Below, piece after piece: positions 1-56,493 of a stretch of 64,000 nt of DNA (position 1 is the stretch's first letter; each line of letters opens with the position of its first letter). Position numbers and translations under genes: made by a program. The notes below the pieces were generated by a model. It was not told the DNA's origin, did no database searches, and worked only from the letters and a program-made list of their open reading frames with translations. The stretch is from Podarcis vaucheri (taxonomy: Eukaryota): NCBI GenBank assembly GCA_965113315.1, contig OZ220367.1. One strand, given 5' to 3'.

Positions 1-976
1 GCTACTCAGTTCACAGAGGAACCAGCCCATCCAACATGATACTACAAACTGTTCTGGACCGATGGAGTGCAGAGAACACTACAGAATGTCAGAATGGGAA
101 GAGGAGGCAAGTTCTTTTTTTATTTGTTGTTTTTTTTCCTGAAATTCTAACTTGCTTTTATTTTTAGTATAATTAGCATCACAGGAGAGTAAGTATCTGA
201 TTCTAGTAGTTATTCAATATGCAAAAACTCTTTTATGATAAATGTGCAGAATGGCAAGTACAGGAGATTCTTTGGATAGAAAATCTTTCATTTCTTCACT
301 GTTTTAACTTTGAAGGTTATATGTTGTGCACACACACACACACACAGCTTGTCAGGTGAACAAAGTGTAAAGTTTACAACGGTAGCAGAACAGCAAAATG
401 CCATTCTAGAATCCAGGAGAGGTTTCTGGAAAGACCTTTTAGTAGCAAAGCAACTGCTAAATGTTATGATACAAAAACTTCTAAATTAAAAAATGTTTCT
501 GTGTATTGCACTCTACCCAGTGCTACCTATTTCTGCAAATTAAAGAAAAAAAATAGTGTTAGAATTTTTTAAAACCATCATTAGGGGTTCAAAGCTCCTC
601 CCTGTCCAGAACCAAAACTACTTGTAGCCAAACAGGCTAAGTGTAGTCACATGTAGTTTTATCCACACGGCTGCTCAGTCCGCATGTGTGGAGGGTTTAC
701 TCTTTGCATGAAAAGGAGTGCCCACAGGATGGAAAAGAAGCCCATTTCTTGTCCCCTGCCTGACTTTGCTGCATGCGTCCCATTGCTTTAAGCAGCATTC
801 TCCCCTAGCCTGGCTCCAAGACTGAACATGAACTAAGAAAATGTCTTAATGCAGGAGAGCACAGTGAAGTGAAGTGAGGGTTAGTGGGTTGTTTCTCTCC
901 CCTTCCTCATGTACTCATTTTCCTGTAAAGTGCCCTGGTATCCCTGCTTCATAAGGATGGGACTCCCATCACATCT

Positions 977-1433
977 GTTGTTGTTTAGTTGTGTCTGACT
1001 CTTCGTGACCCCATGGACCAGAGCACGCCAGGCACTCCTGTCTTCCACTGCCTCATGGTCAGACTCATGTTGGCAGCTTTGAGAACAGTGTCCAACCATC
1101 TCATCCTCTGTCGTCCCCTTCTCCTTGTGCCCTCCATCTTTCCCAACATCAGGGTCTTTTCCAGGGAGTCTTCTCTTCTCATGAGGTGGCCAAAGTATTG
1201 GAGCCTCAGCTTCAGGATCTGTCCTTCCAGTGAGCACTCAGGGCTGATTTCCTTCAGAGTGGATAGGTTTGATCTTCTTGCAGTCCATGGGACTCTCAAG
1301 AGTCTCCTCCAGCACCAGAATTCAAAAGCATCAATTCTTCGGCAATCAGCCTTCTTTATGGTCCAGCTCTCACTTCCATACATCACTACTGGGGAAACCA
1401 TGGCTTTAACTATACGGACCTTTGTTGGCAAGG
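977..1433 (-). mobile_element. Bov-B (RTE-clade LINE) 5'-truncated 3' fragment
   Basis: ORF 985..1437 encodes an RTE-type RT C-terminus (KAMVSPVVMYGSESWTIKKADCRRIDAFEFWCWRRLLRVPW...LQYFGHLMRR). It has a CAA-type tail and a direct repeat TCACATCT at 969-976 and 1434-1441. Confidence 0.9.
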
Positions 1434-1908
1434 TCACATCTAGCTTGACTGAAATGGCATCAAGCAGAAAGCTGTCCCAGTGATAGCTTCCGATGCGCAG
1501 ACGTTTGAGGGTGACTGTTACAGAGCCCTAGAAGAACTGACTCATCTCTTCTCCTCCCTTGCCCCTCCATAGCTGCTTTTTCAGCTTTAGACACAGAAAG
1601 TTAATTCTCTCCCCCTTCTCGGCCACTGCAATGTCAGCTGCAAGTCAAAAGCAAAGCTGCAGAAGCCACTGATTAACAAAGCTACCCAGCCATGCTGCAA
1701 TGCCGTCTAAGTAATCATCTGGGTATCATGGAGTCTCTGTCCAGCGGGAGACTTAAAACAAAGATTTCTGTAGCTCCTGCAGCTCGGTTATTTAAGCCTG
1801 AAAGCAAATGTCTAAGGGCAGATCACTTGGCAGCTTCCCAGATTCTCGGTGTGGCATTTCAGCTCCAGCATTCTTCACTGGAGTGTTTGTTCATGTTATA
1901 AAGCCCAT

Positions 1909-2695
1909 TGTCACGGCTGCCTCAGGTCCCAGCTCACAAAGGACCAACACCAGTCTCTCTTTATATACAAAGGTCTTTATTGAAGTCCATTAGTTGTTCC
2001 ACAGTAGCGGCGCGCAGCCGTACGTCTGTTAGCTTAGACCGTAGAAGTCCCTTCTGAGTCGGTCCCCCCCCCTACACCAGCTTAAGATGCTGGCTTTGCT
2101 CCACCTCCTCCTGTCCTTCCTTTTCCGCAGGGTCTTTCTGCCCGCTGGAGTTCCGCCCCTCCTAGATTCTTCTGACGCTGAATCTCCCGACGGCTCTCCC
2201 TCCCTCCTGCGGGCTTTGGGACCTGGCTCCTCCCCCGGGCTCTCCGTTTCCCCGCGCGCTTGCACATTTGAACTTGGCGCGCGTGCCCAGTTTCCAACCC
2301 TTCTCCTGATGGTAACGTCACTCCTCTCACTGCTCCCCTCCCCTTCTGGGAGAGTGGCTTGTTCTGACCTCTCCTCCCTTCCAGCCAACGGAGCTGCTTC
2401 TCCTGACACACTGGAACTTCCCCCCCCTTCGCTACGCTCTGGAGGGGAAGCCGGCTTTGATCTCCAGCTGCTGCTTCGGGATTCCCTGTTGGCTCTTTCC
2501 CCCTGATGAGTCCCCCCTGGGGCTCCTTTCCCCCTGGCTACAGGCGCCCCCTCCTGGGAATCCCCTGATTCGCTGGAAAAGCTCATGGAGTCCCTTGGGC
2601 CCCAGTCCTCCTCCTCCTCCTCGCTGTCCTCGGACTCTGCCCAATGGTCCTCCCTCTCCTGCCTCCCATGTGCCTCTGCCCCTGAACCCCTGACA
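1909..2695 (-). mobile_element. Solo LTR (787 bp) of a Gypsy-like LTR retrotransposon
   Basis: TGTCA...TGACA termini, 5-bp TSD CCCAT (1904-1908, 2696-2700) and AATAAA on the minus strand at 1976-1981. The frame is open from 2695 to 2029 and resembles the LTR-encoded tail of the full element. Confidence 0.88.
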
Positions 2696-4249
2696 CCCAT
2701 GCTCATGTATATAGTGGGGGACCGGAAGCACTTAAATAGCAGACCCAGGCAATCTATCCAAAGGACAGCTACTGGGTTGTACTCCAGCCAAGTCAACTCT
2801 TCAGATTTATGTCTCAAATATGACCATATTTGGGGGGATTGGGGCGGGGAAGAAACATGAAGTGCCCTGAGCAACTTAGAGAAAGGGCAATATAAAAATG
2901 TTAGGAAAGCAAAAGGCATGTGTTAACACAAAAAAAAAAAAAAACATGCAACTTCGTGCTTCCTAGTGGCTGACTGGACAGTCTGTATGCTGGAGCTTAA
3001 TTAAATTAGTGGTTTAGTTAATCCTGTTCATGTAACCTGGGGTGAAGAAACACTTTCAGCCCGAAAATGGTGGTGCCAAGGGCAAAAGTCAGCAGAGCTG
3101 CAGCTGTAACTCTTACATACAGTGGCTGATATTCCAGCCATCCAAAGGTCAAAGGTTTCTATGCCCCCCACTCCATCCAGGCTGCAGGAGACTTGGGCAG
3201 TTCAAGGACACATTCCAGCTAGTCAAACGCACTCAAAGAAGGCACAGCAGAACCAATGAGAGGTGTGGCCAAGTGCTATTTTTGCATTAAAATGGTACCT
3301 GTTCTGACAATGGGGCAGATGGAGTAGAGAGGGGTTTTTTAATGGAACAAGGAATGTGGTTGGGTAATAAAGGAATAGAAAGTAGCTCTCCAATATATCA
3401 GAGAAACATGCCTGGTAGTTTACATAGGCACAAATGAAGTCTGTAGGAAGAAAGGAGAAGCTGCTTCATTCCTCTGTTTAGAAATGGTAACATGCACATA
3501 ACACGCACACTTAAGAACTCACCTGCTAAACAACTTTGTGTTCATTGTACTACCAACAGAAAATCACTAAAATTAAAAGACCATTTGGAACAATAGCTAG
3601 GTGTGCATTAAAATAACAAAAAGCCTAGAATTCCTTCTCTTAATTGCAGAGTTAATTTTAGGAATCCATCACCCTTAGTCAGGTCTTGTGCTCCACCCCA
3701 CAATGCAATGCTGAGCAACGTCCACACCTATTTTAACAATACGTCCCCTTTCCTAACTTGGCAGACGTGACCTACATCTGCAACCTCTCTTTCCCGTCTC
3801 CGGATTCACTATGCTCCTTCACAGTGGGCTCCTACCTAGGAACCTCAACTTTTATTATTCAGAGACCTACACTCCTTCCCCTTGCATCTCCAATCTAACT
3901 TGACACTTGAGACCAACCCAATAATTCCATAGCCTCTAGCTGCAGGTCACACAGATGAAAGCAAAAGACATGCTTAGGACTCCCCTGTACTCTTACAAAG
4001 AGTCTTCACAATCTTCCCTGCCACTACTCTTATACATTATTAAAGTACTATTTACTGAACAGCTGCATTTATTTATTTTCCAATACAATATGCTGTCTTC
4101 CGCTCATTTAGAAGCCAAGGGGTAGTGGTTCTTTCTGTTAAGGCTACGGATAGCACAGGTGTTGTTAGGTTTACCAGTTCTGAATATGCCACAGTAACTG
4201 CAGGCCATGAAATGGAAAGTCCCTTGTTGTATAAGGGAACCGGATAGGA

Positions 4250-4430
4250 AAATAGGAAGCTGACTTACACTGAGTCACACTCTTGGCTTATTCAGCTCAG
4301 TATTTTCACTGACTGACACTGGCTCTCCAGGGTTTCACGCAAGGGACATTTCCAGCCCACCCTGGAGACCCTGGGGATTGAAAGTGGGATCTTCTGCATG
4401 CATAGCAGATGCTCTACCACTGAGCTACAG
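4250..4430 (-). mobile_element. tRNA-derived SINE, degraded
   Basis: tRNA-like head on the minus strand (GTAGCTCAGTGGTAGAGCATCTGCT...) and an ...AGCTTCCTAT tail. A related copy lies at about 36195-36375 on the plus strand. Confidence 0.7.
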
Positions 4431-4726
4431 ACATTCCCATGAAATAAGGGGGTATATGGGCTCCTTCTATCCTTGGAAGGCATTTGATCAAGTAGAGGAA
4501 TCCCACTGACAGAAGGTGGCAGCAAGACTTTTGCCAACTCCCCCTGTAGCCCCCAGCATCACCACCTATAATGTTCAGAACTCCAAGACAGATTTCCTTT
4601 TATAATCATTTAAATAATTTAGTATTTAAATTAGTAAATTTACAATTCTAGGATTCTATGTATTAAATTTACTAATTTAATTGGAAGGGGCCCTGAGGGT
4701 CATCTAGTACATTAATTAATGATAAC

Positions 4727-5179
4727 TGTCAAGGGATGGTTAGCTGCTTGTGCTTAAAATTGTGCCCCTTCAGAGTTTGTGCGACCCCACAAACCTCTGT
4801 GTGTGACAGAGCTCCTCAGACATGTCTGCTCTAGTCACTAGTAGAGTCTGACAGTGGCTGTCTGCGGAAGCGCTTCCAGCAAAGAAGTTCCTTAACGGAA
4901 ACACGTCTCCTGGACTCACGACGTGGCAGCTTCCGGCGCAGCATGGGTCTCCCTGCAGTTGCTTCTGACACCTCCCCGCTATTTTCGCTCGAAGTGTCTC
5001 TCACCCCTTTCTCTCCCCTGCTGCTTCCTGCCTGGGCTGCTGCGTCTCTCTCAGCATTACTGAGATCCTCCTCCAGAGACCCCGCGCTCCCCCTGCTGGT
5101 CCCTGCTTTGGCTGTTGACTCTCTCCCAGTCTCTGGGAGCCTTACCACTTCCCTTTCCTCCGATGTCAGTTCCCTGACA
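4727..5179 (-). repeat. 3' LTR
   Basis: Direct repeat of 9836-10288; no difference found by eye. Confidence 0.95.
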
Positions 5180-6675
5180 TCCACCTCCCCTCCAGGGCCC
5201 CCCTCTCCCCCGCCCCTACTTTCTCCTCTGGGCGGTGAGGAGCTGAAACCCCTAAAAGAATCCTCTTCATCTTCAGACGTCTCGAACAATTCCCTCCATC
5301 GGTCTTCGTTCCGACTCGCTGAATCCTCCTCCACCTCGGAATCAGCGAACCCCTCCAACTCTTCTTCGTCGTCGGTGGTGGCGAAGTATTCCCTCCGGAA
5401 CCTCGCCACTGGCTGGGGTTTTCTAGGGAATCTCTGATGAAAAGTTTCAATCAAAACCTCGTCATCTACCTCCTCTGCCCTGACCCAGGTGTTTTCCGAC
5501 TCCGGCTCCCCTTCCCACATTACCAAATACTCTACTTGCTCTCCCCTCCACCTGGAATCGAGAATCTCCGCTACATGGTAGCTGTGTTCTTTTTCTTCCA
5601 TAGCTGGTCCCCTATTGACCCTCCCCTCTCTGTCCCCTATATACGGTGACAGCAATGATCTGTGGAACACTGGGTGCAACTTCATGTGGTTCGGTAACCG
5701 GAGTCTGAAAGCCACTGGGTTGACCTGTTGCGTGACTTCAAATGGGCCCAGTCTTTTGGGTCTTAACTTCTTACAACCTCCTTTAAATGGTAACCCTTGG
5801 GTGGACAGCCACACCTGGTCCCCCACCCTAATGCTTTCCCCTTCCCTTCTGGTTTTGTCTGCCTGCCTCTTATATTCCTCCTTCGCCCTGTTTAAATTAA
5901 GTTGGAGTTGGCGATGGATCGCTTCCATTTCTTCAACGAACTGTTCTGCGGCAGGAACGCTCCAGTTCTCCCCCTCCCCCCCTGGGAAGGCTCGGGGATG
6001 ACACCCGTGATTGGCCAAAAAAGGGCTCATCCCCGTGGACACGTTCTCTGCATTGTTATAGGCAAATTCTGCCAACGCCAGCTTCTCCACCCAATCATTC
6101 TCTCTGTCATTCACATAACACCTCAAATATTGCTGGAGGACACCATTAGCTCTTTCCGCCTGCCCATTGGTTTCTGGATGACGGGCAGTGGAAAAATTTA
6201 CCTCTACATGCAATAAGCTCATGAGCTTCCTCCAGAACCTGGAAGTAAATTGTTTCCCTCGGTCCGAAACCACCCTCAAGGGGGCACCATGCAACCTAAA
6301 CACATTTTCCACAAACAATTTAGCGGTTTCTTCTGCTGTGACCGCATGTGAGCAGGCTATAAAGTGGGCCATCTTGGTTAACAGGTCTACCACAACCATA
6401 ATGGCTGTCTTCCCTTTGGACCTGGGCAGATCAGTCATGAAATCTATTGCCACTGCCTCCCATGGTCTTTCCGGCGTGGGTAGTGGTTCTAATAAACCTG
6501 CCGGTGCCCGCCTCTCCCCCTTGGCTCGTTGACATCGGTCACACCCTCTCACATATTCACGCACATCTTCCCTGACCTTGGGCCACCAGAATTCCCTGGT
6601 AACCAGCCACATGGTTTTGTGTTGCCCAAAATGCCCTGCTGTGGGGCTATCGTGCAGTTGCTTGAGTACCTTTTC
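4831..6675 (-). CDS. pol: Pol C-terminal part: integrase (HHCC, DDE, GPF) plus chromodomain plus LTR-encoded tail
   Basis: HDSPTAGH...CDRC zinc motif; AIDFM/VSDRG/NGQAERAN catalytic triad; RLGPFEV; chromodomain YHVAEILDSRW...YLVMWEG...NTWV. It is out of frame with upstream pol at about 6675. Confidence 0.92.
   Translation of the reverse strand, partial: EKVLKQLHDSPTAGHFGQHKTMWLVTREFWWPKVREDVREYVRGCDRCQRAKGERRAPAGLLEPLPTPERPWEAVAIDFMTDLPRSKGKTAIMVVVDLLTKMAHFIACSHAVTAEETAKLFVENVFRLHGAPLRVVSDRGKQFTSRFWRKLMSLLHVEVNFSTARHPETNGQAERANGVLQQYLRCYVNDRENDWVEKLALAEFAYNNAENVSTGMSPFLANHGCHPRAFPGGEGENWSVPAAEQFVEEMEAIHRQLQLNLNRAKEEYKRQADKTRREGESIRVGDQVWLSTQGLPFKGGCKKLRPKRLGPFEVTQQVNPVAFRLRLPNHMKLHPVFHRSLLSPYIGDREGRVNRGPAMEEKEHSYHVAEILDSRWRGEQVEYLVMWEGEPESENTWVRAEEVDDEVLIETFHQRFPRKPQPVARFRREYFATTDDEEELEGFADSEVEEDSASRNEDRWRELFETSEDEEDSFRGFSSSPPRGESRGGGEGGPGGEVDVRELTSEEREVVRLPETGRESTAKAGTSRGSAGSLEEDLSNAERDAAAQAGSSRGEKGVRDTSSENSGEVSEATAGRPMLRRKLPRRESRRRVSVKELLCWKRFRRQPLSDSTSD
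5180..5194 (-). promoter_or_regulatory. Polypurine tract (plus-strand priming)
   Basis: Minus strand reads GGAGGGGAGGTGGA immediately before the 3' LTR TGTCA. Confidence 0.8.
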
Positions 6676-8837
6676 CCTTCAGGTATGTATAACGCTCCCT
6701 TGTAGTACAACGCCCCGTTTCTCTCCTCAAAACCCCCGGGTTTGTCTCCCTCCCTCCTGAGACCCCTGAGTTTGTCCTGGGCGTATTCATCCTGCACCGT
6801 TCCCTCTACCAGTTCCCTTTGCCCCACCAAAGCCGCCCCACACACCCAGCGGTCCTCGGGAATAACATGGGTCTCTTCGGGTGCACCCTCTCCCTCCAAA
6901 TATTCAGGTTTGCGTGAGAGAGCGTCCGCCCTAACGTTCTCCGGGCCTGGTACGTAACAAATCTCAAAGTTAAATTTGGAGAACTCCTGGGCCCATCTCA
7001 ACTGCCTTTGGTTGAGCACTCGCGCAGTTCTCCAATACTCTAGATTCTTATGGTCCGTGCACACTTGCACCTTCTGTTGTGCACCAATTAGTAGATGCCT
7101 CCATCTCCGGAAGGCCTCATAAATCGCAAGAAGTTCCCGGTCGTGCACCGTGTAGTTTCTCTCAGATTTGTTCAGCTTTCGCGAAAAGAAGGCACACGGT
7201 CGCCACTCTGACCCCTCCTTCCCCGGCTGCAGAAGAAGCACCGCCCCTATGGCTCTGTCCGAAGCGTCTGTTTCGACCCTCAGCTTTTTTTGTAAATCCA
7301 CATGTAGAAGTTGTTCGTCAGAGGCGAAGGCCCTTTTCAGTTCCTCAAACGCTCGCTCCGCCTCCCCCGTCCAAACAAACTTCTTTTTGCTGCTGAGACA
7401 GTCCGTGATGGGCGCCGTCAGGTGGGCGAAGTTTCGGATGAACTTACGATAAAAGTTTCCAAACCCTAGGAACCTCTGCACATCCTTCTTGGTTTTGGGT
7501 GTTTTCCATTCCAGCACCGCTTGAACCTTGCCGGGGTCCATGGCCAACCCCTTGTCTGACAAGCGGTACCCCAGGAATTCCACCTCCTTGGTATGAAACT
7601 GACACTTTTCCAGTTTCACCCACAGTCTGTTGGCTTGCAGCCTGCTCAACACTTCTCTGACATCTCTCACATGTTGCTCCTCATTCTCCGAATACACCAA
7701 CACGTCATCTAAGAAGGCCACGCAATTCTTGTAGAGCAAAGGCCCCAGTACATGGTTCATAAAGGCTTGAAAACACGCGGAGCCTGTTTGTAATCCAAAA
7801 GGCATAACGAGGTATTCAAATGCCCCCAAAGGGGTGAACATGGTGGTCTTCCATTCATCCCCTTTCCTTATACGTATCAGGTTGTACGCCCCCCTTAGGT
7901 CCAGCTTTGTAAAAATCTTTCCTTTTCGCACCCTGGTCAAAATATCATCAATCCTGGGCATAGGAAAAGCCGCCGGCTCTGTCACTGCATTTAGGGCCCG
8001 AAAGTCACATACCAGCCTCGGCTTGTCCGTGTTTTTTTTATCCACAAAAAACACTGGGCTACCCCCCGCTGCCTTGGACTCTCTGATGAAGCCTCTCTTC
8101 AGGTTCTTGTCAATGAACGCTCGCAACTCCTGCATCTCCCTGTCTGACATGGCATACAACTTGCCTACAGGAAGCTGTGCTCCAGGGAGTAAATTGATCT
8201 GGCAATCAAAGGGCCTATGCGGGGGTAGTTGGTCCGCTTCCTTCTCGCTGAACACGTCGCTGAGATCAGCATACTGTGGTGGCACCTTCCCCTTCTCCAT
8301 CACTTCCGTCCCTGCTAGGGTGGCTTGGGCCCCTGCTGACCCCTTTTCCGCCCTGCAGTGTTCTAAGCAGTGTGCGGAACCGAAGGAAACCACTCTTTGA
8401 TGCCAGCCCACCAGCGGATCATGTAGGGCTAGCCAGCTCATTCCCAAAATAATGGGAGCGCCTCCCAAGGTGGCCACATTAAACGCTATCAGTTCTGTGT
8501 GCCTTGCCACCCTCATTATCATTGGGACGGTCTGCAAGCTGACGCCTCCTCCCAACAGTTCCCTGCCATCAATCGTGGTCACCTGCAGGGGGTTGCTTAA
8601 AGGGATAGTCTGTATCTGGTGTTCAGCAGCAAACTCCTTGCTCATGAAATTGCAGGAGCTGCCTGAGTCCAACAGCGCCTTTATTTTTAGGGGGTGTCCA
8701 TTTTGCAGCTCTAGCGACACTTCAATCACTAGAGCAGGTCGAGGAGCTTCTGGCACTGGCACTTGGGGAAGGGGCACTTTCACTGCTCTTTGGCCTGGCT
8801 GCAGTGCCCTGCTGGCAACCAGGCGTTGGCTTTTACC
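6676..8837 (-). CDS. pol: Pol N-terminal part: aspartic protease, reverse transcriptase, RNase H
   Basis: ALLDSGS protease; KLDLRGAYN, VMPFGL and FLDD RT motifs; ETDASD, RELLAI and TDHKNL RNase H motifs. It lies in the -1 frame relative to gag. Confidence 0.93.
8772..8837 (-). promoter_or_regulatory. Gag-pol -1 programmed frameshift signal (G_GUA_AAA plus H-type pseudoknot)
   Basis: Heptamer at 8831-8837 and a 6-nt spacer. Stem 1 is GCCUGGUUGC/GCAGCCAGGC; stem 2 is GGGCACU/AGUGCCC. Confidence 0.8.
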
Positions 8838-9790
8838 TGCTCCGTTTCTCCCTGCTCTTCCCCCTCAACAGCTCCCACCATCCCTTGCCATTCCTTCCTC
8901 TGGGGGCAGACTCTGGCAAAGTGGCCTGGCTGTTGGCAGAGATAGCATTTCCGGGCTCCCTTTCCCTCCTTCTTCGCCCCCTCACTGGGCTTTGAAACTG
9001 CGCGCGCGCGGGCTGTTCCGATTTCCATCGGCTCTGCCGGCGGGAAAGCTGGCTCAGGAATGTCTGGAATGCGTAACTCCTTCCAACGTTCCCCTCTCCC
9101 TTCCCGCCTCTCCAAGGCTCTTGCCTCCTGGCGCGCTCCAATGGTCAGCGCAGATTTGGTCAGCTGATCCATAGACCCCGCCCTGGGGCTCCTGGCCAGC
9201 TCGTCTTTCACAGCTGAAGAAAGACCTTCTTCAAATAGCATCTGAATGGGTGCCGCCGATAAATCCCACCCCAATCTGTGAATCAGCATGGTAAATTCAG
9301 TCCAGTACTCACGGACAGATCTGCTTCCCTGCTTGCAAGCCATTAGCTGTCTGCGTACCAACCCTTCCTCAATATCGCTGGAAAACATGATATCCATTGC
9401 ACGAAAGAATTTCATAGTGTCCTTTAGGATATCGTTGTGCGTTGCCATCAGGGGTCGAACCCAGTCCCGCGCCCCCTTCTCAAGATGCCCAATTACGAAC
9501 GCAACTCGCGATTCCTCATCAGGGAACTCATCAAACTGCACATTCAGAGCATATTGCATCTCAGTCCTAAAGGCATGGTAATCCTTGGGGTCCCCCCCAA
9601 ACTTCTGCACCAATCCTGGTACCTTTCTGGGGAACTGAGTGGTTCTCCCCTTTTTGTCAGCATCCTGAGCCCTTCTCTCCTCGAGCCTCGCCGTCTGCAG
9701 CGCAAGTTGGACCTCCAGAGCTTGATACCTTTCTTCCAAGCTTGGACCAGCTCCAACCCCTGCGTCTCCGGTTCCGACTGGGTTGCTCAT
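8780..9790 (-). CDS. gag: Gag (336 aa), capsid plus CCHC zinc knuckle
   Basis: Intact ORF with the retrotransposon gag motif CKQGSRSVREYWTEF and zinc knuckle CYLCQQPGHFARVC. Confidence 0.93.
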   Translation of the reverse strand: MSNPVGTGDAGVGAGPSLEERYQALEVQLALQTARLEERRAQDADKKGRTTQFPRKVPGLVQKFGGDPKDYHAFRTEMQYALNVQFDEFPDEESRVAFVIGHLEKGARDWVRPLMATHNDILKDTMKFFRAMDIMFSSDIEEGLVRRQLMACKQGSRSVREYWTEFTMLIHRLGWDLSAAPIQMLFEEGLSSAVKDELARSPRAGSMDQLTKSALTIGARQEARALERREGRGERWKELRIPDIPEPAFPPAEPMEIGTARARAVSKPSEGAKKEGKGARKCYLCQQPGHFARVCPQRKEWQGMVGAVEGEEQGETEQVKANAWLPAGHCSQAKEQ

Positions 9791-9822
9791 GATGCTTTCT
9801 CCTGCACAGGCAGCGTACAGAG

Positions 9823-9833
9823 ACTGTCAGACT
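9823..9833 (-). promoter_or_regulatory. Self-priming primer-binding site
   Basis: AGTCTGACAGT lies 2 nt after the 5' LTR and is the exact reverse complement of LTR positions 9954-9964. There is no TGG tRNA-type PBS. Confidence 0.8.
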
Positions 9834-9835
9834 GC

Positions 9836-10288
9836 TGTCAAGGGATGGTTAGCTGCTTGTGCTTAAAATTGTGCCCCTTCAGAGTTTGTGCGACCCCACA
9901 AACCTCTGTGTGTGACAGAGCTCCTCAGACATGTCTGCTCTAGTCACTAGTAGAGTCTGACAGTGGCTGTCTGCGGAAGCGCTTCCAGCAAAGAAGTTCC
10001 TTAACGGAAACACGTCTCCTGGACTCACGACGTGGCAGCTTCCGGCGCAGCATGGGTCTCCCTGCAGTTGCTTCTGACACCTCCCCGCTATTTTCGCTCG
10101 AAGTGTCTCTCACCCCTTTCTCTCCCCTGCTGCTTCCTGCCTGGGCTGCTGCGTCTCTCTCAGCATTACTGAGATCCTCCTCCAGAGACCCCGCGCTCCC
10201 CCTGCTGGTCCCTGCTTTGGCTGTTGACTCTCTCCCAGTCTCTGGGAGCCTTACCACTTCCCTTTCCTCCGATGTCAGTTCCCTGACA
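9836..10288 (-). repeat. 5' LTR
   Basis: Direct repeat of 4727-5179. Confidence 0.95.
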
Positions 10289-11658
10289 ATAACTTTAATA
10301 TTTCTTTAAAAATATTAATAATTATTAATTTAAACTTAAGTGTTTCTTTCTAAAATAAAATAAAAAATTACCCTGGCCTTCCTCTCATAAGAGGCCAGGG
10401 CATCAAGTAACAAACATGACACACAAATGAATATCAGAAAACCAAACTAGTACAGAGAGGTACAGGACATTGTTTAGAGGCTTGCAGATTGCTGGAGGGT
10501 GCAAGGGACTGTGGTGAGGACCTGTAAAAGTTGCTTTCTCTCCCTCTCTCTCCACCACTCTCCACCTTTCACTAGTGAAAGCATCCCCTGAGCAGGAACT
10601 CTTCTCAGGCAACTTTCCTACTGTTGGAGCGGGGTGGGGGGGAATAGATCCAAGTCTATTTGGTATGCATCTAGATTCTTGTGCAATGTTGTTTCTGAAT
10701 GGTTCTAAAGGCAGCCGGAAAGTAAACAGGTTAATTTAAAACAAAACAAATCTCAAAACCCATTGTAACACCCACAACACAATAGCCCTCAGTCCCCTGG
10801 CTGATGGACAGGGCCATTATACATTTCCATTCTCCTCTCCATTGCCCAGACACCTGAGGGTTGGAACAGAGAGTTCTTTCAAAAAATGAGGGGACAATGT
10901 AAACTCTCTGAAGGTGCTCCTTCTCTGGCTGGTGGATGTGGCTAGGCTATTCTTCACCTTGCCATGATGTCCTTCTTTACAGATAATGCATCCACCCACT
11001 CAGAGTTTTAACTTCTAGAGACTTCAGAAACATAAAACTGTGAGGAATGACAAAACTAGCAGCAACAATAAAAAATCACCAAGGCATCACAAACGGGCAA
11101 GAATGGGGACAGTGACTAGGATTCTGAGTTTGGAACCACTGGAAGGAGGGGGGGAACCCTGCCTGAAGGTCCAATCATCAGAGACTCCAATCATGCAAGT
11201 GGAAGAGGGGACAGATATTACTTTTGTTGGATCCCTCTTCCTCCTGAAGTCCTGTCTGCCCCCTAACAGTTGTGCTAGAGGGTTGGGGACCCTCCAGAGC
11301 TGCATGATGAGTGATGCTGTGGACTACAGGATAAAGAGGGGACTCAACAAAAATTGCAGCCTCCTCTTCCACCCCCACCTTTGCTGGTAGAATTGTCTGC
11401 CAGAATCTTGGTTCTATCAATGAGACCTTCTATTCATGGATGCCTAATTAGTATTCAAGTCAATGGTTTTATGAATAAGAACCAGAAGATAGAAACTGTT
11501 CTTGGTAAAGAGTGACTGTCAGGGTGTATGTCATTTTGCCTGAATGGGATAGGCAGACTTTGCAAAGGAAGCAGCATCATGATTTTCTCATTACATACCG
11601 TACATCTCTTTACCTCACACCTGGCAAAATGGCTGAAACACAGGAAAAGTCCTTAGGA

Positions 11659-11796
11659 CAGGCATAGGCAAACTCGGCCCTCCAGATGTTTTTTGGCACT
11701 ACAACTCCCATCATCCCTCACCACTGGTCCTGTTAGCTAAGGATGGTGGGAGTTGTAGTCCCGAAACATCTGGAGGGCTGAGTTTGCCTATGCCTG
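11659..11796. mobile_element. hAT-type MITE
   Basis: Terminal inverted repeat (TIR) CAGGCATAGGCAAACTC, palindromic body and 8-bp TSD CCTTAGGA. Confidence 0.88.
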
Positions 11797-14589
11797 CCTT
11801 AGGATATCCCAATGCCATTTTTTCAGCGTTTAAAAAAGAAAGAAAGCTAAACTGCATTCATCTGTAGTGGTGAAATTTGTACCGAGGCTCAAGCATGGCA
11901 ACATTTTAGCACCTTTTTAAAATAGTAAAACACAACCTAAATGTAGTCGGATGCTTGAAAACAAAGTCATACACAATCTAGGAAAGAGAAACCAAACTGG
12001 GCATTGTATGGCTTCCATACAGGGTTTTTCGTCACCATGATGGCCTTTTTTATATAGGTCAAATGATCCAACACCATAAGCAATTTAGATGCTATTAACT
12101 CATCATAATTTCAGTGTATCCTGTAACCTATAATTTAGCTATGTCGCTCAGATACACAAACCAGTCCATCAGCATTAACAACAACAAATTGCACCATATA
12201 TGCAGCAGTGTGTACTTTACACATATTTATTGCAGAGGCTGTACTTTAATGACGCTAAATATGTAGCAACACAACCTATAAAACATATGAGGCTTAAAAT
12301 ATTCCTCTGCACTAAGGTTCTTACTGGATCAGCATTGCAGGCTCTTTCTCTCTTTCTCTCTAGCGTTAACAAATACCACGTTAAGCTTCTGTCGACATCC
12401 CTAATTGCAAGGAGGAAAACATTTACAATAACATGAAAATATCTTGGTTGTGTTTTTTTAAGGGTAGGTGTCTGTTCACACTTGGTCAGGATTACTTGGA
12501 TTAGAAGAAGAAAGGATTAAAAGTCAATGTAAGATGCTACAATTATTTTATTGAACTTGGAGCTAGCTTTTGGCAATTCACCTTCTACATCATATGTACT
12601 CTTTAGAGCAGTAGTTACCAAACATGGTTTCCCCTGGGCCACTTGAAAATTGCTTCAGGTCTTGGCAGATCACTTAATTCCAGACCTTCTCCTGTTTTGC
12701 TTCCCCTGTCTTGCCACCAGCCACGGCTTTATTTCTCTAAGGAAAAGCCTCCTCCCCAATCACTTCTGTTCCATCCTGCTCACCTTCCAGGCAGACCACC
12801 AAATTCTAAGAATCATGAAGTAGCCACTATGCCAGCTGTTCTTCACACGCGCACAGCTACTGTGCCCACCATTCTTCACACACACACAGATTCAACACCA
12901 CTATGCAGAGTCACCACCATGAGCCTCCTCATGGTTGAAGTTCATGCACTATTGGTGGTCCCCAGAGCACTTTAGGAACCCCCACTTTAGAGCCCTGATT
13001 TGAAAATAGAATAGAATAGCTCCATGTTGGCCATGCTGAACTCCTTGGAAGAAAGGCAAGATTCAAACAAGATAAAACATACTCATACTGGCTGTCATCT
13101 TTGGGAAGGCAACCAGTTTAGATGAGCCTTTGGTCTCTCTTTCCACATAAAATTCCATCTCTACCTGGATTATATTTTCTTGCCTCTCAAAAATAATTCT
13201 CACAAGGTTAAATGAAAAACAAGCATATACAGTTTGTGGGTTGTAGGGTTTAACTTCAATTTAACAGCTTACTACTAGTAGTAGTAGTCTAATAAAGAGG
13301 AGTAGAGGAAGTCTTCACAAAGACAATACCATGCTAGTGAAACTGACTTTGCGTCTGTTAAAAAATGCTTTGAAGTCCCCATCTGATCATATGCAGTAGA
13401 CATGAATGCCTTTAAGGCTCACAGGAGTTCACTACAAGGGCATGAAGGGAAGCACTGTGCTGCTTGCATTACTGAAGAAGCTATTGCCCAATTAGTGCCA
13501 CAACTGCCATGGACGCTGGCAGTTAACAAAAAGAGCAAATGAGAAAGCACAGCTTTAAGATGACAAAGCTCATTAGTGGAAGATCAATCCAAGGGCATGC
13601 TTGAACAACTGCCCAGTACTCCCAACACGTTAAAGGCCTCACACAGATCTCCTCATTGAGCAAGCTTATTGCTAGGAGTTGGCAGAGGTGGCTTAAAAAC
13701 CTATAGATTACATAATGTCATTTTTGGGGAGAAGTGCTGTTTTTAAGGGATGCTTTTTAAAAAATGTTTTAAGTCTATCCAAGACACAATCGTCCCAGCT
13801 CATTGTATAGTACAGCAATGGGGGACCTGGGACCTTTCAGAAGTTTCCTGATTACAACCCCCACCAGCCCCAGCCAGCATGGCCAACAGTCAAGGATGAT
13901 GGGAGTTGTAGTCCAACATCACCTTGGAAGGCATCATGTTGGGTACATCATTTAGTATCCTGTATTTTGTCTGTATCTATAAATAATCTAAAATGTCAAG
14001 CATTCACACAACACAGGAAGCCAAGCTTTACAATCCCTGTGCTCCTAGTAGGATTACACTTGGTGCAATGAGTGTGTACATAGCTTCAGATGACATTGTG
14101 GGGTTTTCCAGTTCAGATTCAGTTGCTGTTCCAACTTTTATATTCTTTGCTGTAAATTGAAGTCACTGCTACTTGTCCCTTTTTCAGTGGCTTTGGTAAA
14201 CCACTGTCTTCTGACTTCATAAGCACACGCTGCTGGTAAAACCAATATTGAAATTGTTCCAGGCATCTTGAAATCTCTCTGTTGAGAAAGGAAGGGCAGA
14301 AAGGGGAGGCGTTTGGAAAGAGAGGAAGCCGAAACATAGGAAGTTGCTACCTGTAAAAGCTGTGTCAGCAAGCTGAGATCATGGGGCTTTCTCCTTGTTT
14401 AGAGTCATCATAGACCACAGCATATGAAGTCAAGTGTTTCCTACGGAAGTCCAACCAAGGTCCTCCACTTTCACAAGTGAAGCTTGAATTGCTGCATCTC
14501 ATTGACAAGGTACCGCACAAAGGCTCCTGAGCAAGCTTTACAGTCATGGAATGAGAGGCGAAGCCCTCTTATGGATCAGAAATTGGTTA

Positions 14590-18468: not shown

Positions 18469-20227
18469 GTAAATGACTTTAAAAATAAATAAATCAGGAA
18501 TTTCTGATACAGTTGTTTTAGAGAGGAGTTAATAATTTATACAGTTGTACCTCCTTTTTAGTACCACGTTGTTAGTTGAGTTTCACATAACAGCAGTTCA
18601 TTTAGAAGACTTCCCAAAAACAACCATTGGTTATTTCCATTCCTGCTTAGCATTCTAACCAAGCTCGTGAGGTCATTGTCTTTAAACCTCGAACCATCTA
18701 ATAAACAGACTACCCCTGGTTCACACACACATCCTTTCTTTAATAATCAAAATTCACAAGTACCCCTAATGAAGCTCCTCATTATCAATATATTTGAAAA
18801 AAGATAACCATACCTGTATATACACCACAATCTAGTGAAGATAACCCTTGCTCGCATGCCATTCACTTTCAGAAAACCACTATGCATGCAGTTCCACTTG
18901 CTACACAGCTGCAGCCAGCATTTGGCATTCTCAACACAGTTCCTGCTGCTGGGCTTGGAATGCATGGGCAGTGCCAAAGAGTAGAGACTGCCTGTGGTGT
19001 CAGGTTTGGGGGAACCCTAGATTGAAGACTCCATATTCTCCTCCTCTTAAAAAAAAGCAAGCAAACAAATATAGCAGTGCTATCAATGCCAATAGCACAA
19101 TGATCTGATTGGCAGGTATGTATGCAAGCAGATACTCACCTACAGCCTGCTACTGCATTCGTGAGTCTAGAGACTGGCAATTAGGAATTTAATCAAGCAC
19201 CTGGTGGTCCTCACTACATGATCAGCATGCCACAAAAATACCCTATGATTCACAGGACTTAGAAGCCTGATGCAGTCTGAACTGATGGGTAAAGAGTTCC
19301 TAAAGCAAGGGAGGCTCTCTTGCAGCGTTGCACCACAAATGGCATAAAAAGCAGGACCCAAGGTTTGGCTAGACAGGAGCAGGATGATCTGTGGTTCTCG
19401 TGTTGTCACAGATTTAGCACTACCCCGCACAATCTCTGAACTCGGCTTGCAGCCTCATTGCTTCCAAACCTTCAATAAATGGAGAATTTACAGTTTCCTT
19501 AGGCAGCTCATTCTGCTGCTGAACTGGTCTTAAGAGTTATGAACACAGCATATATTTATGTTCCAGTCTTCCCCCTCCCTTTCAATACCCTTTTGTGTCC
19601 TTGAATAAGACTCCGAGGGCTCATCCCAACAAGCCTTTGCATGCAGACAGGATCTTAGTCACTGGCATCACTAAGCATACTTGTGCAGCTGGCTGCTATT
19701 CGGAGTTTAAAACCATGCACGCCCTGCCACCTCATTGCTGGAGCTGTGGTCTGAAGCCCTTTTCTGTAGCGTGCAAACATAGCAGTGTAATAAAAACATT
19801 TTCTTGAAAGAGGAGGGCAACTCCCCTGGCTGTACCAGGTGTAGAACCTCACTCTGCTGACCTCCTAAGAACCACCCTGCTGAATCAGACCAAATATTTA
19901 TGCATTCCAGCACTACATTTCCAGCAGAGCCCAACCAGGTGCTTCACAAGCGGAGACAAAAAGCAATAGCCACCTCTAGTTGTTAATCCCAAACAACTGC
20001 TATCCATCATGTCTAATTGCACCCTTTCTACATGCTCCACAGTTACTCAAATGTGATAGATGAGTGTGCATCCAGAAACAGTTTCTGGATTCCTTCTGTT
20101 CACATAAATTAGGGGGATGTGACTCTTGATTATAGGGGTAACTATTGAGTTATTGTTGTTATAGTTCTGTATGAATAGCTACGATTGTTAAACCAACTTA
20201 GACCATTTCTTTCCATCATTCCCATAG

Positions 20228-21270
20228 ATCATCATCAACATCTGGGTCAAGGCAACAGTATTTTAGCCAACTGTTCACAAGATCTACCTGGGAATTCTAC
20301 CAGTAATGAATTCACAACCATTGTCTTACCTGTGCTTTACCTCGTCATATTCCTGGCTAGCATCTTACTGAACAGCTTGGCTGTATGGATTTTCTTCCAC
20401 ATCAGAAACAAGACCAGCTTTATCTTTTACCTCAAAAACATTGTGGTTGCGGACTTGATGATGACCCTGACATTTCCATTTAAAATCATCCAGGACTCAA
20501 GACTGGGGCCATGGTACTTCCATTTTTTCCTGTGCCGGTATTCGACCGTTTTGTTCTACGCCAACATGTACACTACGATTGTGTTCCTTGGGCTCATTAG
20601 CATCGATCGTTATCTGAAAGTGGTCAAACCCTTTGGGGATTCCAGGATGTACAGCATCAGGTTCACCAAGATTCTGTCTGCGTGCGTTTGGATTGTCATG
20701 GCATTTTTAGCCTTGCCAAATGTGATCCTTACAAATGGTCATGCAACTAGGAAAAACGTAGGCGACTGCTTAAAGCTAAAGAATTCCCTGGGAGTCAAAT
20801 GGCACAGAGCTGTCATTTACATCAACAACGGCATGTTTGTCGTTGTACTGATAGTATTGATAGGATGTTACATTGAAATATCAAAGTATATCTACAAATC
20901 AAGCAAACAATTTACCAGTCCTTCAAGTCGCAAACGGAAGCACAACCAAAGCATAAGGGTGGTTGTAGCAGTGTTTTTCACGTGTTTCTTGCCATATCAT
21001 TTGTGCAGAATACCTTTTATTTTTGGCCACCTAGATAAACTTTTGGATGAATCGGCACACAAAATCCTGTACTACTGCAAGGAAGTGACACTTTTCCTTT
21101 CTGCGTGCAACGTGTGCCTAGATCCAATCATCTACTTTTTCATGTGTAGATCATTTTCAAGAAGGATGTTTAGGAAATCAAACATGCGAACGAGGAGCGA
21201 AAGCATTAGATCGCTTCAGAGTGTTAGAAGATCAGAGGTGCGAATATATCATGAATACGTTGATCTGTGA
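20228..21270 (+). CDS. GPR87: G protein-coupled receptor 87, main coding exon (358 aa after splicing)
   Basis: 7TM protein with [46 protein letters not shown] and [19 protein letters not shown]; acceptor CCCATAG at 20227. Confidence 0.96.
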
Positions 21271-22870: not shown

Positions 22871-23079
22871 ACAGATAGGTAGCCGTGTTGGTCTGCCATA
22901 GTCAAAATTAAAAAAATTCCTTCCTGTAGCACCTTAAAGACCAACTAAGTTAGTTCTTGGTATGAGCTTTCGTGTGCATGCACACTGTGTATCTGAAGAA
23001 GTGTGCATGCACACGGAAGCTCATACCAAGAACTAACTTAGTTGGTCTTTAAGGTGCTACAGGAAGGAATTTTTTTATT
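22871..23079. mobile_element. Penelope-like element remnant with inverted pseudo-LTR
   Basis: About 77-bp inverted arms (22910-22986, 23000-23076), direct flank ATGGTATGTGCATGTT (22855-22870, 23080-23095) and a hammerhead-like core. Confidence 0.8.
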
Positions 23080-23624: not shown

Positions 23625-24208
23625 TAGGGTTACCAAACATCCCCAGTTCCCGGGGACAGTACCCGGATTTGCAAATCTGCCCCTGGAATGTCCCCAGATT
23701 TGCAAATCTGTCCCTGGGAAATGTGGCAGCAGCAGCCTCAGCAGCCCGGAGCCAGCCTGTTAGTGCAGTTGGCTCTGGCTGGCTTATGGAGCTGCTCGCT
23801 GCCGTGGCGCCCGCCATTTTTTCTGTGACACGGCAGCCAGCAGCTCCTGAAGCCAGCCAGAGCCAACTGCACTAACAGGCTGGCTCTGAGCTGCTGAGGC
23901 TGCCACTACCAGGCTCACCCCTCCCGGGCCATGACTCCCGAGCCTTCCCTGATCTATCAAAACAAAGGGGGGGAGGAGATCAGGGAACGCTCGGGAGTTA
24001 TGGGCGGGCGGCACACCGTTGCCCAGTTAAAAAAAAACTCTGCGCATTTATGTTTCACAGGGTGCAAAAGAAGGGCTTTACACCTTTATATAATATGCTT
24101 GGGCCAAGGGTCTTTTGCCTCACCTTCCCCACTACTGACTCCCTGTTGCTACCCAACTTCAAAAAAAAAAAGGGTCCCCGGATTCATTGAAAAAAAATGG
24201 TAACCATA
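23625..24208. mobile_element. Non-autonomous hAT DNA transposon
   Basis: TIR TAGGGTTACCA / TGGTAACCATA, 8-bp TSD GCTTACAT and an internal inverted repeat of about 60 bp. Confidence 0.85.
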
Positions 24209-29835: not shown

Positions 29836-30397
29836 TCATCATTTGTCATCTGCTGGTAGAAGAGGTGATGGTTTGGTCTTGCATTGGACCCATGGTCCAA
29901 TTTAGTACACCCATCAAACATTCGCCAACAGCTGCTCAGCTTCACTGGTTATGTTATTCTGTGTGTTCTCTTATACCTCCCTTATACAGCAATAGTACTC
30001 AAACTTCTTCATAGTAGCAAATATCAAGACAATATTCATGCTTAGGCTCCCAAAAAACGCCCAGAAAGTTTGCACCTGTGGATGTGAAACCTACACTGGC
30101 TGCAAAGTACATTATATTTCAGCATACTGAACAAACATTGCTCTGTGCATTTTTGCCTCTGGTCATACCCACAGCAGGCAAATGCCACCCCTGGAAAGTT
30201 CCCAAGAATGGCTGAAAAAGGCTCCCAATTCCTGCTCTTGCGGAAACATATTTGATTTAGCTCCATGCAAAAATGTTCCTGAATGTGGTCTTCATGTGCC
30301 ATATAGGAAGATACATGGGGGGATTCTGCTGCAGGTGGATAACTCTTGTGGATAACTCTTTCTTTCTCTGCTCACAGGAACTGAAAATGCACTAGAG

Positions 30398-31411
30398 ATG
30401 CCTAATTCAAGCACTCCTCTAGGAAACTCCTGCAGCTTCAATGAGATAATAAGAAAACAAGTTCTTCCAGTTGCCTATGGTCTGATCTTTCTAGGAGGAA
30501 TCCTGTTGAATGGGGTGGCAGCCTGGGTCTTTCTGTACATTCCCAGCAAGACAAGTTTTATCGTCTATCTCAAGAACATTGTGGTTGCTGACCTCATCAT
30601 GAGCTTAACTTTCCCATTTAAAGTTTTCGCCGATTCAGAAATTGGATCTTGGCGGCTCAGTGTTTTCGTCTGCCGTTTTTCAGCAGTCATATTTTACCTA
30701 AATATGTATATCAGCATAACACTGTTTGGTCTCATAGGCTTCGACCGATGCTACAAAGTTGTGAAGCCTCAGTTCATCACATCTTTCCATACTGTTCGAT
30801 GTAGCAGATGTATCTGTGTAGCCGTGTGGGCACTTCATATAGTGATATCACTTCCCAATACAATTTTAACCAATCAACATCCTACCAAAAATCTTTCGAA
30901 GAACTGTGTGAACCTCAAAAATGAACTTGGAGTCCAATGGCACAAGGCTTCGAACTACATCTGCTTAGGAATTTTTTGGACTGTCTTTTTACTCCTAATA
31001 GCCTTTTACAGTTCTATAGCAAGGAAAATATATCTATCCCACCAAAAATTCAGGAAAAACTCCAAACGGTCAAGGAAAAAAACCAATCGGAATATTTTCA
31101 CCATCATGCTTGTATTTATCATTTGCTTTGTCCCATACCATGTTGTAAGAATCCCATACACATTGAGTCAAACTGCTTCACATCATTATAACTGCCTAAC
31201 AAAAGAGGTGTTGTTTTACCTAAAGGAGCTTTCTCTGCTCCTGTGTGCTGCAAATGTTTGCCTTGATCCTATTATTTATGTATTTCTTTGCCAACCCTTC
31301 AAGGAAAGGTTGTACCAAAAATTGCACCTCAAGTTGAAGGTGTCTGAGGAATTAGAAAACTCTAGATCTAAAAAGTCAAATGTGATTTGTGAAACAGTAG
31401 TTATTCCATAA
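30398..31411 (+). CDS. P2RY14: P2Y purinoceptor 14 (UDP-glucose receptor), 337 aa, single coding exon
   Basis: 7TM protein with [53 protein letters not shown] and CLDPIIY. Acceptor CTCACAG at 30377; syntenic between GPR87 and GPR171. Confidence 0.95.
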   Translation: MPNSSTPLGNSCSFNEIIRKQVLPVAYGLIFLGGILLNGVAAWVFLYIPSKTSFIVYLKNIVVADLIMSLTFPFKVFADSEIGSWRLSVFVCRFSAVIFYLNMYISITLFGLIGFDRCYKVVKPQFITSFHTVRCSRCICVAVWALHIVISLPNTILTNQHPTKNLSKNCVNLKNELGVQWHKASNYICLGIFWTVFLLLIAFYSSIARKIYLSHQKFRKNSKRSRKKTNRNIFTIMLVFIICFVPYHVVRIPYTLSQTASHHYNCLTKEVLFYLKELSLLLCAANVCLDPIIYVFLCQPFKERLYQKLHLKLKVSEELENSRSKKSNVICETVVIP

Positions 31412-34513: not shown

Positions 34514-35048
34514 CTGTATTTTTCGCTCTATAAGACGCACTTTTCCCCTCCTAAAAAGTAAGGGGAAATGTGTGTGCGTCTTATGGAGCGAATGCAGGCA
34601 GGAGGCTCTGCTCAGCGCTCCCTTTAAAGAGCCGTGTGGAGTGTGTGTGCAGCTTTTCGGGGCTTTCCCCCGAGGAGGGAGAAGGGCTGCCCTTCTTGGG
34701 GGACCCTTAGCCGCGTGCAGCCTCTCCCGGGCAGGGAATGAAGGCTCCCCTTGCCCGGGAGAGGCTGCGCGTGGTTATCCCATGAGCCAAGATAGCCAGC
34801 GGGATCGCTGCGATCCTGCTGGCTGTCCTGGCTTCTTGTTTAACCGCACACAGCCTCCGCAGGGCACGGGGAGCCTTCATCCCGCTGCCCTGTGGAGGCT
34901 TCGTGCGGCTATCCCTGGCTTTTGCGGGAGGTGGGGGGAAGGGACAGAGCGCACTCTGCTCAGCGCTCCCTTTAAAGAATACTTTTTCCCCCTCTAAAAA
35001 TTAGGTGTGCTTTATCGGCTGGTGCGTCTAATAGAGCGAAAAATACGG
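34514..35048. mobile_element. pogo/Tc2-like non-autonomous DNA transposon
   Basis: TIR C(C/T)GTATTTTTCGCTCTAT..GACGCAC, TA TSD and GC-rich interior; same family as 59762-60683. Confidence 0.85.
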
Positions 35049-39041: not shown

Positions 39042-39177
39042 CAGGCATCCCCAAACTCGGCCCTCCAGATGTTTAGGGACTGCAACTCCCACCACCCCTA
39101 GCTAGCAGGACCAGTGGTCTGGGATGATGGGAATTGTAATCCCAAAACATCTGGAGGGCCGAGTTTGGGGGTGCCTG
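39042..39177. mobile_element. hAT-type MITE (same family as 11659)
   Basis: TIR CAGGCA(T/C)CCCCAAACTCGGCCCTCCAGATGTTT; 8-bp TSD TTCTTAAG/TTCTTAAC. Confidence 0.85.
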
Positions 39178-39347
39178 TTCTTAACAACAGTCACAGATTT
39201 GGTTAGGTATTGTGCGACACTATTGCTTACCGAAAGACAGTTTATTTGTTTGTTTATTTCTCTCTCTCTCTCTCTCTCTCTCCCAACTCCAGGTTTTGTC
39301 TCTCAGAAAAGGTGCACATACTTTGCCTCTCCTGTGAATCATTTAAG

Positions 39348-41360: not shown

Positions 41361-41543
41361 CAGAGGTATAGGAAAATGTGTTGCATATTGCAAATGGCGA
41401 AGGAGGTTGTAGTTTGATGGGAAAATCAGCTCCCTCAGTTTTTCCCTCTTCATAGACTTTTCACTCATTGTTGAAATTCTTCTGTCTATCATTGATACGG
41501 AAGTCAGATTCTCACAAGACTCCCCAGGCATTGGAGAAAATAT
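41361..41543 (-). CDS. MED12L: MED12L exon (IFSPMPGESC...ATHFPIPL), last exon before the giant GPCR-containing intron
   Basis: AG/GT bounded, 183 nt, phase 0, recognisable MED12L peptide. Confidence 0.93.
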
Positions 41544-56483: not shown

Positions 56484-56493
56484 TATATTATTA

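Follow-up and report, generated by a model that had tools for sequence, protein, structure and literature searches.

A lizard Tf1/sushi-type chromovirus with an integrase frame that continues into the 3′ LTR and carries candidate LEDGF/HRP2-binding motifs

Introduction

What does an integrase gain when its reading frame does not stop before the 3′ LTR (long terminal repeat)? The question is raised by a retrotransposon in a 64,000-nucleotide stretch of DNA from the lizard Podarcis vaucheri (GenBank assembly GCA_965113315.1, contig OZ220367.1), here called the window, in which the element occupies positions 10288-4727 on the minus strand. The original prediction, made from the letters of the window, was that pol runs through the polypurine tract (PPT) and most of the LTR, and that U3 thus doubles as promoter and as coding sequence for an integrase extension. 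In the follow-up described here, the read-through was found to be a trait of a whole family of lizard elements, and the tail was found to carry, upstream of the LTR, two motifs resembling those with which host proteins bind LEDGF/p75 and HRP2.

The integrase frame enters the 3′ LTR

The integrase frame (pol frame 2; 6678-4831, minus strand) has 615 codons, encoding the integrase zinc finger, core, SH3 domain, chromodomain and a tail. The chromodomain (5431-5580, minus strand; residues 367-416; Chromo E 7.7e-12) is followed by 199 residues, or 191 when counted from the end of FPRKPQPV, in line with the predicted length of about 190. The frame stays open through the PPT (5180-5193, minus strand, with a purine-rich run to ~5225), which is read as Gly and Glu codons, and through 115 codons of the LTR (5178-4834), before the stop at 4833-4831 (LTR positions 347-349). 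In total, the frame covers 349 of the 453 bases of the 3′ LTR (77%), as had been proposed.

The two LTRs (9836-10288 and 4727-5179, both minus strand, 453 bp) are 100% identical, end in TG...CA and are flanked by the 5-bp target duplication GTTAT (10293-10289 and 4726-4722); as the pair is identical, the insertion must be very recent. The domain order between them is that of Ty3/Gypsy elements, with gag followed by protease, reverse transcriptase, RNase H and integrase, and with the chromodomain at the C-terminus. There is no tRNA-type TGG primer site; an 11-nt primer binding site directly behind this LTR (9823-9833, minus strand) is complementary to LTR positions 325-335 and pairs with them in the folded predicted leader. 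In Tf1, the RNA is primed by its own 5′ end. If the same holds here, U3 corresponds to LTR positions 1-324, giving a predicted U3 at 5179-4856 and R from 4855 in the 3′ LTR. Self-priming is described as a mark of the Tf1/Sushi group (PMC6317226), and both LTR ends match the Sushi att motifs TGTYANR and CNTNACA (PMC3601003). The element is a Tf1/sushi-type self-priming chromovirus, recently inserted, from a lacertid host. The closest named relatives are from Podarcis muralis (P0254, with 94% identity across the whole frame), and in a quick tree built with no Sushi-ichi reference the element groups with Anolis and Rhineura records (support 95) and with frog records (support 94).

With the self-priming site as transcript start, the frame crosses the entire predicted U3 and ends approximately 22 nt into R, so the earlier placement of its end within U3 has to be corrected. 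It is practically certain that pol runs across both the PPT and all of U3 to a stop in R; the 3′ copy of U3 is coding, and the 5′ copy would be the promoter region.

The acidic and basic peptides quoted in the original prediction were both located in the tail. As a correction, the strongly acidic stretch (5403-5245) lies upstream of the PPT and is not encoded by the LTR. Inside the LTR, a low-complexity spacer rich in G, S, E, R and A (4951-5178, minus strand) is the fastest-evolving part and tolerates in-frame indels, and it is followed by a basic end (4834-4950, minus strand) containing LLCW (4887-4876), which lies 23 nt upstream of where the transcript is predicted to begin, and PLSD, the codons of which are the self-primer sequence itself (4855-4845).

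In 5000 shuffles of each kind, the LTR part stayed open in 0.7% of cases when single nucleotides were shuffled and in 2.3% when dinucleotides were; for the 196-codon tail as a whole, the corresponding values were 0.02% and 0.1%. The other two sense frames contain 3 and 7 stops. A single purine-rich copy cannot by itself exclude a chance open frame. A 200-codon frame on the plus strand (4835-5437) was rejected as a by-product, the antisense strand of the solo LTR described below having stops in all three frames.

IBM/TIM-like motifs between the chromodomain and the LTR

The acidic block had been regarded as generic, but it contains two motifs that resemble the integrase-binding-domain (IBD)-binding motif (IBM), or TFIIS N-terminal domain (TND)-interacting motif (TIM), of host proteins. 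Motif 1 (5347-5403, minus strand) consists of a short predicted helix ending in YF, an 8-residue acidic linker with Thr, and LEGF, which is FxGF in sister families. Motif 2 (5245-5301, minus strand) consists of a predicted helix with RWRELF, a 9-residue acidic Ser/Thr linker with CK2-type sites, and FRGF. A TIM has been described as a helix followed by an acidic linker, 8-16 residues long, and in some cases by FxGF, which every known partner of LEDGF and HRP2 has and needs; affinity rises when CK2 phosphorylates the linker, and two motifs are found in several of the partners (PMC9987994). The IBM consensus S/E-x-F-x-G-F has been given together with a DPF3a peptide (PMC7337902), to which the motif of a second family of the same clade, the solo-type family described below, is close (LF, 8 residues, STFQGF, compared to LF, 10 residues, STFHGF in DPF3a).

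At least one copy of the pattern, helix with F, linker and F-x-G-F, was present in 13 of 13 family representatives, in which the anchor F at the helix end is conserved. It was absent from 280 records with a chromodomain that belong neither to the clade nor to the RRSAR-type families discussed below. When the residues of six tails were shuffled, the pattern appeared in 5-45 of 5000 trials. The exact S/E-x-F-x-G-F consensus is found in P0001, P0002, P0004, P0005 and P0009. An AlphaFold model placed helices at residues 424-431 and 456-465, which are the two motif helices, with the rest of the tail unstructured (mean pLDDT 42); this model was built on a 7-row alignment, is of low confidence and was used for helix positions only. 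From these patterns, the FxGF motifs of the tail probably bind the TFIIS N-terminal (IBD) domain of LEDGF/p75 or HRP2, with one or two helix, acidic linker and FxGF units behind the chromodomain mimicking host IBD-binding motifs and with binding probably tuned by CK2 phosphorylation.

Three observations count against this assignment. In the window copy, motif 1 reads LxGF and motif 2 has D, rather than S or E, two positions before the first F. The linker is acidic in 9 of the 13 representatives, and it is Ser/Thr-rich but weakly acidic in the four solo-type ones. A sequence comparison of the motif region with solved IBM peptide chains returned 0 PDB matches at E 10. Apart from these, a feature search with the motif region of a relative reached a best score of 0.84, in small clusters and below the lead threshold. 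A homolog search with the chromodomain and tail alone found nothing at E 1 among 2055 candidates, which is uninformative, since other searches did find relatives.

An incomplete aromatic cage in the motif-bearing clade

The chromodomain in front of the motifs has Y, W and E at its cage positions, an incomplete cage that departs from the three aromatic residues of a class I (HP1-like) chromodomain. The third aromatic is absent in 42 of 42 motif-bearing records and kept in 235 of 269 others; of the 34 other records that lack it, 8 are broken members of the clade. The central chromodomain Trp is also lost in the solo-type family. The motif carriers form one branch (14 rows, SH-aLRT 100, in a quick tree of 74 rows) with integrase identities of 51-98%, in which P. 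muralis and P. lilfordi are the only named species. The tail has approximately 200 residues here, compared to a median of 12 in the 280 other chromodomain records named above. Of these, 264 were complete; 206 had tails of up to 30 residues and 29 had tails above 80, many of the latter resembling gene-model fusions.

Two points weaken any causal link between cage and motif. The remaining 26 records without the third aromatic lie outside the clade, and the cage was lost once and the motif gained once, both in a single branch, so that the 42 records stand for one evolutionary event and the correlation has no statistical weight.

Sister families and a more general role for the tail

Families on the same branch as the motif clade (support 95) offer a comparison. 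They include Anolis carolinensis families in clusters of 366, 94 and 33 records and a second Podarcis family, all of which keep the full cage and are without the FxGF pattern; the cage-intact members ending in RRSAR[LI] are P0263-P0268 and P0420-P0429 from Anolis and P0270 and P0416 from Podarcis. These families apparently read 85-117 codons into the LTR, the start of which was inferred from protein. Long LTR-coded integrase tails may accordingly be a squamate-wide habit with differing ends, as judged from these protein records. Low E-values between the two tail types were obtained with no composition correction and were not used. The gene models P0006, P0012, P0418 and P0419 fuse an integrase of this kind to host genes (a vomeronasal receptor, TM9SF2, PCBD2 and KCNQ5), which suggests intronic insertions absorbed by annotation.

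The tail could alternatively act mainly in nuclear import or general chromatin binding, with the U3 frame still selected as coding and with FxGF either binding a host factor other than LEDGF/HRP2 or folding back on the element's own chromodomain or integrase. We consider this unlikely, although it is the best of the alternatives. In its favour, the first half is acidic and the final 35 residues are basic in each of the 15 LTR-coded tails examined. The Anolis and Podarcis sister families without FxGF end in an RRS[AL]R[LI]-type sequence in 15 of the 19 records examined, close to RRSARLSA, the core with which HMGN proteins bind the acidic patch of the nucleosome (PMC12480509); this HMGN-like RRSARL core is absent from the window tail. 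Ty1 integrase is a further example, having a bipartite nuclear localisation signal (NLS), the linker of which binds a different host factor (PMC7459421). Against such a role stands the combination of a fixed spacing of 8-9 residues from F to FxGF, an acidic Ser/Thr linker, a predicted upstream helix and a tandem copy, which together fit all three TIM parts. For the fold-back variant, motif 1 begins, in the model, right after the last helix of the chromodomain, but the single motif of P0105 lies far from it; a complex model of the SH3-chromodomain region with its own two motifs, computed without alignments, scored 0.00 and is not counted for or against it.

Retention of the LTR frame

The proposed binding of LEDGF/HRP2 by the motifs concerns the part of the tail upstream of the LTR. 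Whether the LTR part is kept as protein was addressed with a solo LTR in the window and with database records of the clade.

The solo LTR (1909-2695, minus strand; 787 bp, target duplication ATGGG) lies 2 kb from the full element and belongs to a second family of the same clade. It has no blastn similarity to the LTR of the full element, yet it is open for 221 codons from its second base (2694-2032), in the same phase. Its frame starts acidic and ends basic with Trp, and AATAAA follows the stop. In P0009, a full-length relative, the integrase continues into solo-type LTR sequence. Compared with P0394, the window solo LTR, which was not selected for completeness, has 87 residues out of 216 changed, for which approximately 5 stops would be expected and none was seen, and across five solo-type sequences at least 204 amino-acid changes in the LTR-coded part correspond to approximately 11.7 stops expected if neutral. 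In this family (P0009, P0392, P0394 and relatives), the tail before the LTR is longer, at 141-194 residues, and has Trp-rich blocks such as YWWD and WRRKW.

The clade sample consisted of 49 protein-database records with a located chromodomain. In these, the LTR start was inferred from the protein junction, which is a Gly-rich PPT followed by x-V-R/T/M, as encoded by T-GTY-ANR. In 24 of the 49 the frame is open to the basic, Trp-containing end, and indels in complete records are in frame; 25 fall short. The LTR-coded part has 100, 102, 103 or 115 residues in the element's own family, 101 and 102 in two other families and 209-221 in the solo-type one. Among 16 complete records of the own family, every indel is in frame, and at least 113 substitutions were counted, where approximately 4.7 stops would be expected if neutral. 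Mean pairwise identity across these 16 records was 0.88 for the chromodomain, 0.88 for motif 1, 0.55 for the spacer between the motifs, 0.81 for motif 2, 0.70 for the U3 linker and 0.86 for the basic end. Over their last 26 codons, the two window LTRs agree at 9 residues, of which 6 are encoded by different codons; this favours constraint at the protein level.

On these sequence comparisons, the read-through is a family trait and not a chance frame, and it is very probable that the LTR frame has been kept as coding by selection across the clade, with its middle as a length-tolerant spacer. The original view that U3 codes for a disordered extension of integrase is upheld by the family-wide frame and its in-frame length changes; the extension is of low complexity, probably disordered, and ends in a basic stretch.

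Other observations pull in the opposite direction. The 25 short records comprise 10 that enter the LTR in frame and then end or shift, 7 that shift at G-runs of the PPT and 8 that end before the junction. DNA was seen for the two window LTRs, and the other copies are protein records; the complete records were moreover chosen for completeness, so the expected-stop figures are overstated. Gene models are also biased towards frames that are open, and stops are rare in purine-rich DNA, dinucleotide shuffles being open in 2.3% and 1.3% of trials. The Trp codon lies at -23 from the predicted start, the usual position of a TATA box, and PLSD is the self-primer. Because of this overlap with the core promoter position and the self-primer, the conservation of the last ~25 codons may be at the DNA level.

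If these observations are put together, the read-through could be a by-product of a stop-poor, purine-rich and T-poor U3, with a dispensable LTR tail, an end conserved as promoter and primer DNA, and only the motifs before the LTR of importance. It would be in keeping with this that 1-2% of shuffles are open, that the Trp block and PLSD coincide with the core promoter position and the primer, that the frame shifts at the junction in 7 of the 49 records and inside the LTR in at least 4 more, and that fish-, frog- and fungal-type relatives, which mostly stop near the PPT, may also continue for a few codons. The seven junction shifts are in different G-runs, which suggests independent lesions or homopolymer assembly errors, the two not being separable here. 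A by-product is nevertheless quite improbable, as two unrelated LTRs seen as raw DNA share one open phase, indels that keep the frame recur with sizes of 1-15 codons, hundreds of substitutions have brought no stop in complete records, the Arg block differs synonymously, and the acidic-to-basic polarity is found in three tail types that do not align. A further point for frame retention is the low T content of U3, which is 14% in the full element and 11% in the solo LTR. Sushi-clade U3 has been described as T-rich, with AATAAA close to its 3′ end (PMC3601003); neither AATAAA nor ATTAAA occurs in the R-U5 region of the full element (4727-4855), and AATAAA is absent from its whole 453-bp LTR.

It is very improbable that the U3 frame yields a small accessory protein of its own, of the nef or sag kind, by way of splicing, internal initiation or cleavage by the protease, and does not act as part of integrase. 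In its favour, the solo LTR keeps the frame, and in the window copy the basic block begins with a Met. Against it, integrase runs into the frame without a break in all complete records, this Met is missing in 10 of 16 complete family records, and a solo LTR would not transcribe U3, which is upstream of the predicted transcript start.

A possible targeting arm

With the LTR frame taken as coding, we slightly favour a reading of the tail as a modular targeting arm, in which a LEDGF/HRP2 hook would be joined by an LTR-coded spacer to a basic NLS or chromatin anchor. The parts of this arm do not stand equally firm. The hook may have replaced methyl-lysine reading by the chromodomain and may steer integration to H3K36-methylated, transcribed gene bodies; this step is put forward tentatively. 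The weakest step concerns the LTR-coded basic end, for which a role in nuclear import and/or in contact with the nucleosome or DNA has about an even chance of being correct.

Taken further, the lacertid self-priming chromoviruses could have switched tether, losing methyl-lysine reading and gaining a linear mimic of the IBD motif, and would then reach gene bodies via LEDGF/HRP2, converging with the HIV cofactor by another structural route. Squamate U3 would in that case be a reservoir of coding sequence for interchangeable chromatin anchors, with a basic, Trp-containing end in this clade and an HMGN-like RRSAR end in the sister families. This broader scenario is possible, but we would not call it probable.

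Other features of the element and of the window

The remaining frames of the element are a gag frame (8780-9826, minus strand) with Retrotrans_gag, a Ty3 capsid and a CCHC knuckle, and pol frame 1 (6549-8864, minus strand) with protease, reverse transcriptase and RNase H, which overlaps the end of gag. The pol of the window copy is split by a single frameshift at the boundary between RNase H and the integrase zinc finger.

Both insertions, the full element and the solo LTR, lie downstream of exons of a MED12-family gene on the same strand (Med12-LCEWAV domain exons at 46892-47161 and 41283-41543, minus strand), and also past three nested genes for P2Y-type receptors, which are encoded on the opposite strand. 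We take this arrangement to be the MED12L/P2Y receptor synteny, which would place the insertion sites in a MED12L intron, although the end of the gene was not seen. Probably, then, both insertions are in this intron and most of the window is intronic. As evidence for targeting to gene bodies, two intronic insertions are an anecdote and prove nothing.

The receptor genes are intronless P2Y12/13/14-type frames on the plus strand (20179-21267, 30356-31408 and 39207-40310), of which the middle one is nearest to P2Y14 (E 1e-125); the outer two are presumably GPR87 and GPR171, judging by gene order. A fragment at 881-1527 (minus strand) had no Pfam match and looks similar to the 3′ end of an RTE/Bov-B LINE. 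Hairpin-like inverted repeats and dispersed SINE-like repeats, probably MITEs and SINEs, were found at 22909-23077, 23724-23911, 34735-34883, 39042-39177 and 56490-57892. A GC-rich region (59654-60646) has a 331-codon open frame and short direct repeats but no Pfam match. A tmRNA call at 59176-59685 was rejected as a false positive, given the vertebrate genome, and there was no Rfam match across positions 1-14000 of the window.

Comparison with known systems

With the Tf1/sushi chromoviruses (the V-clade of GyDB, with Sushi-ichi and Amn-ichi; PMC6317226), the lizard element shares the domain order, the C-terminal chromodomain, tRNA-free self-priming and the att ends. It differs from them in its tail of approximately 200 residues, the lost cage, the coding and T-poor U3, and an LTR without AATAAA.

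An integrase tail coded in the LTR is already known in kind and is not categorically new. In all plant CRM group A elements and in some other beet chromoviruses, the integrase frame is described as extending into the 3′ LTR and coding a targeting motif there (PMC3059260, PMC3605345). The lizard element has the same frame running into the 3′ LTR, but CRM uses a tRNA-Met primer and its CR motif replaces the chromodomain, whereas the lizard element self-primes, has its chromodomain upstream of the PPT and carries its candidate hook before the LTR; the CR motif was not searched for in it. As it self-primes and retains a chromodomain, it is not a member of CRM, and the two read-throughs are likely of independent origin.

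CRM is also a closer precedent than the one first named, namely HIV nef and MMTV sag. These are U3-coded accessory proteins made from spliced RNAs. They have in common with the lizard element a U3 that is both regulatory and coding, but the lizard frame is the end of integrase.

The host proteins IWS1, JPO2, KMT2A, MED1, ASK, PogZ and DPF3a resemble the tail in having a helix, which in the tail is predicted, an acidic Ser/Thr linker of 8-16 residues and FxGF, and JPO2 and ASK also have tandem copies. Here, in contrast, the candidate motif sits on the integrase of a mobile retrotransposon. The nearest parallel is PogZ, which is transposase-derived but is a host gene (PMC7337902). Lentiviral tethering of integrase by LEDGF is alike in the proposed steering to transcribed gene bodies via the TND of LEDGF/HRP2 (PMC9987994).

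For its part, HIV integrase binds LEDGF through its folded catalytic core dimer and not through a linear FxGF. MLV integrase reportedly has a BET-binding tail. The tails of Ty1, Ty5 and MLV integrase differ from the lizard tail in their host partners, and we know of none among them that is coded in the LTR. The C-terminal targeting domains of Ty1 and Ty5 are nevertheless similar in design, with short motifs for host chromatin factors in a disordered tail, beside basic NLS elements (PMC7459421).

In the searchable literature, we found no paper that describes IBM/FxGF motifs on the integrase of a retrotransposon, and none on lizard chromoviruses with LTR read-through; notes in repeat databases were outside the scope of this search, and a prior mention is possible.

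Significance

To our knowledge, there is essentially no explanation of how the LTR retrotransposons of vertebrates target their integration, and LEDGF use has been described as a trait of lentiviruses. Should the motifs bind, a mobile element would be mimicking the TIM code of its host. The arrangement known from plant CRM elements would have arisen again in vertebrates, and one stretch of 30 nt can be codon, transcript start and reverse-transcription primer together. For annotation, the consequence is that protein code is present in the consensus entries for the LTRs of these families. As cage-intact and cage-less sister families are present in the same lizard genome, they would, if the motifs bind, offer an evolutionary before and after, in which the target preference of the two can be directly compared.

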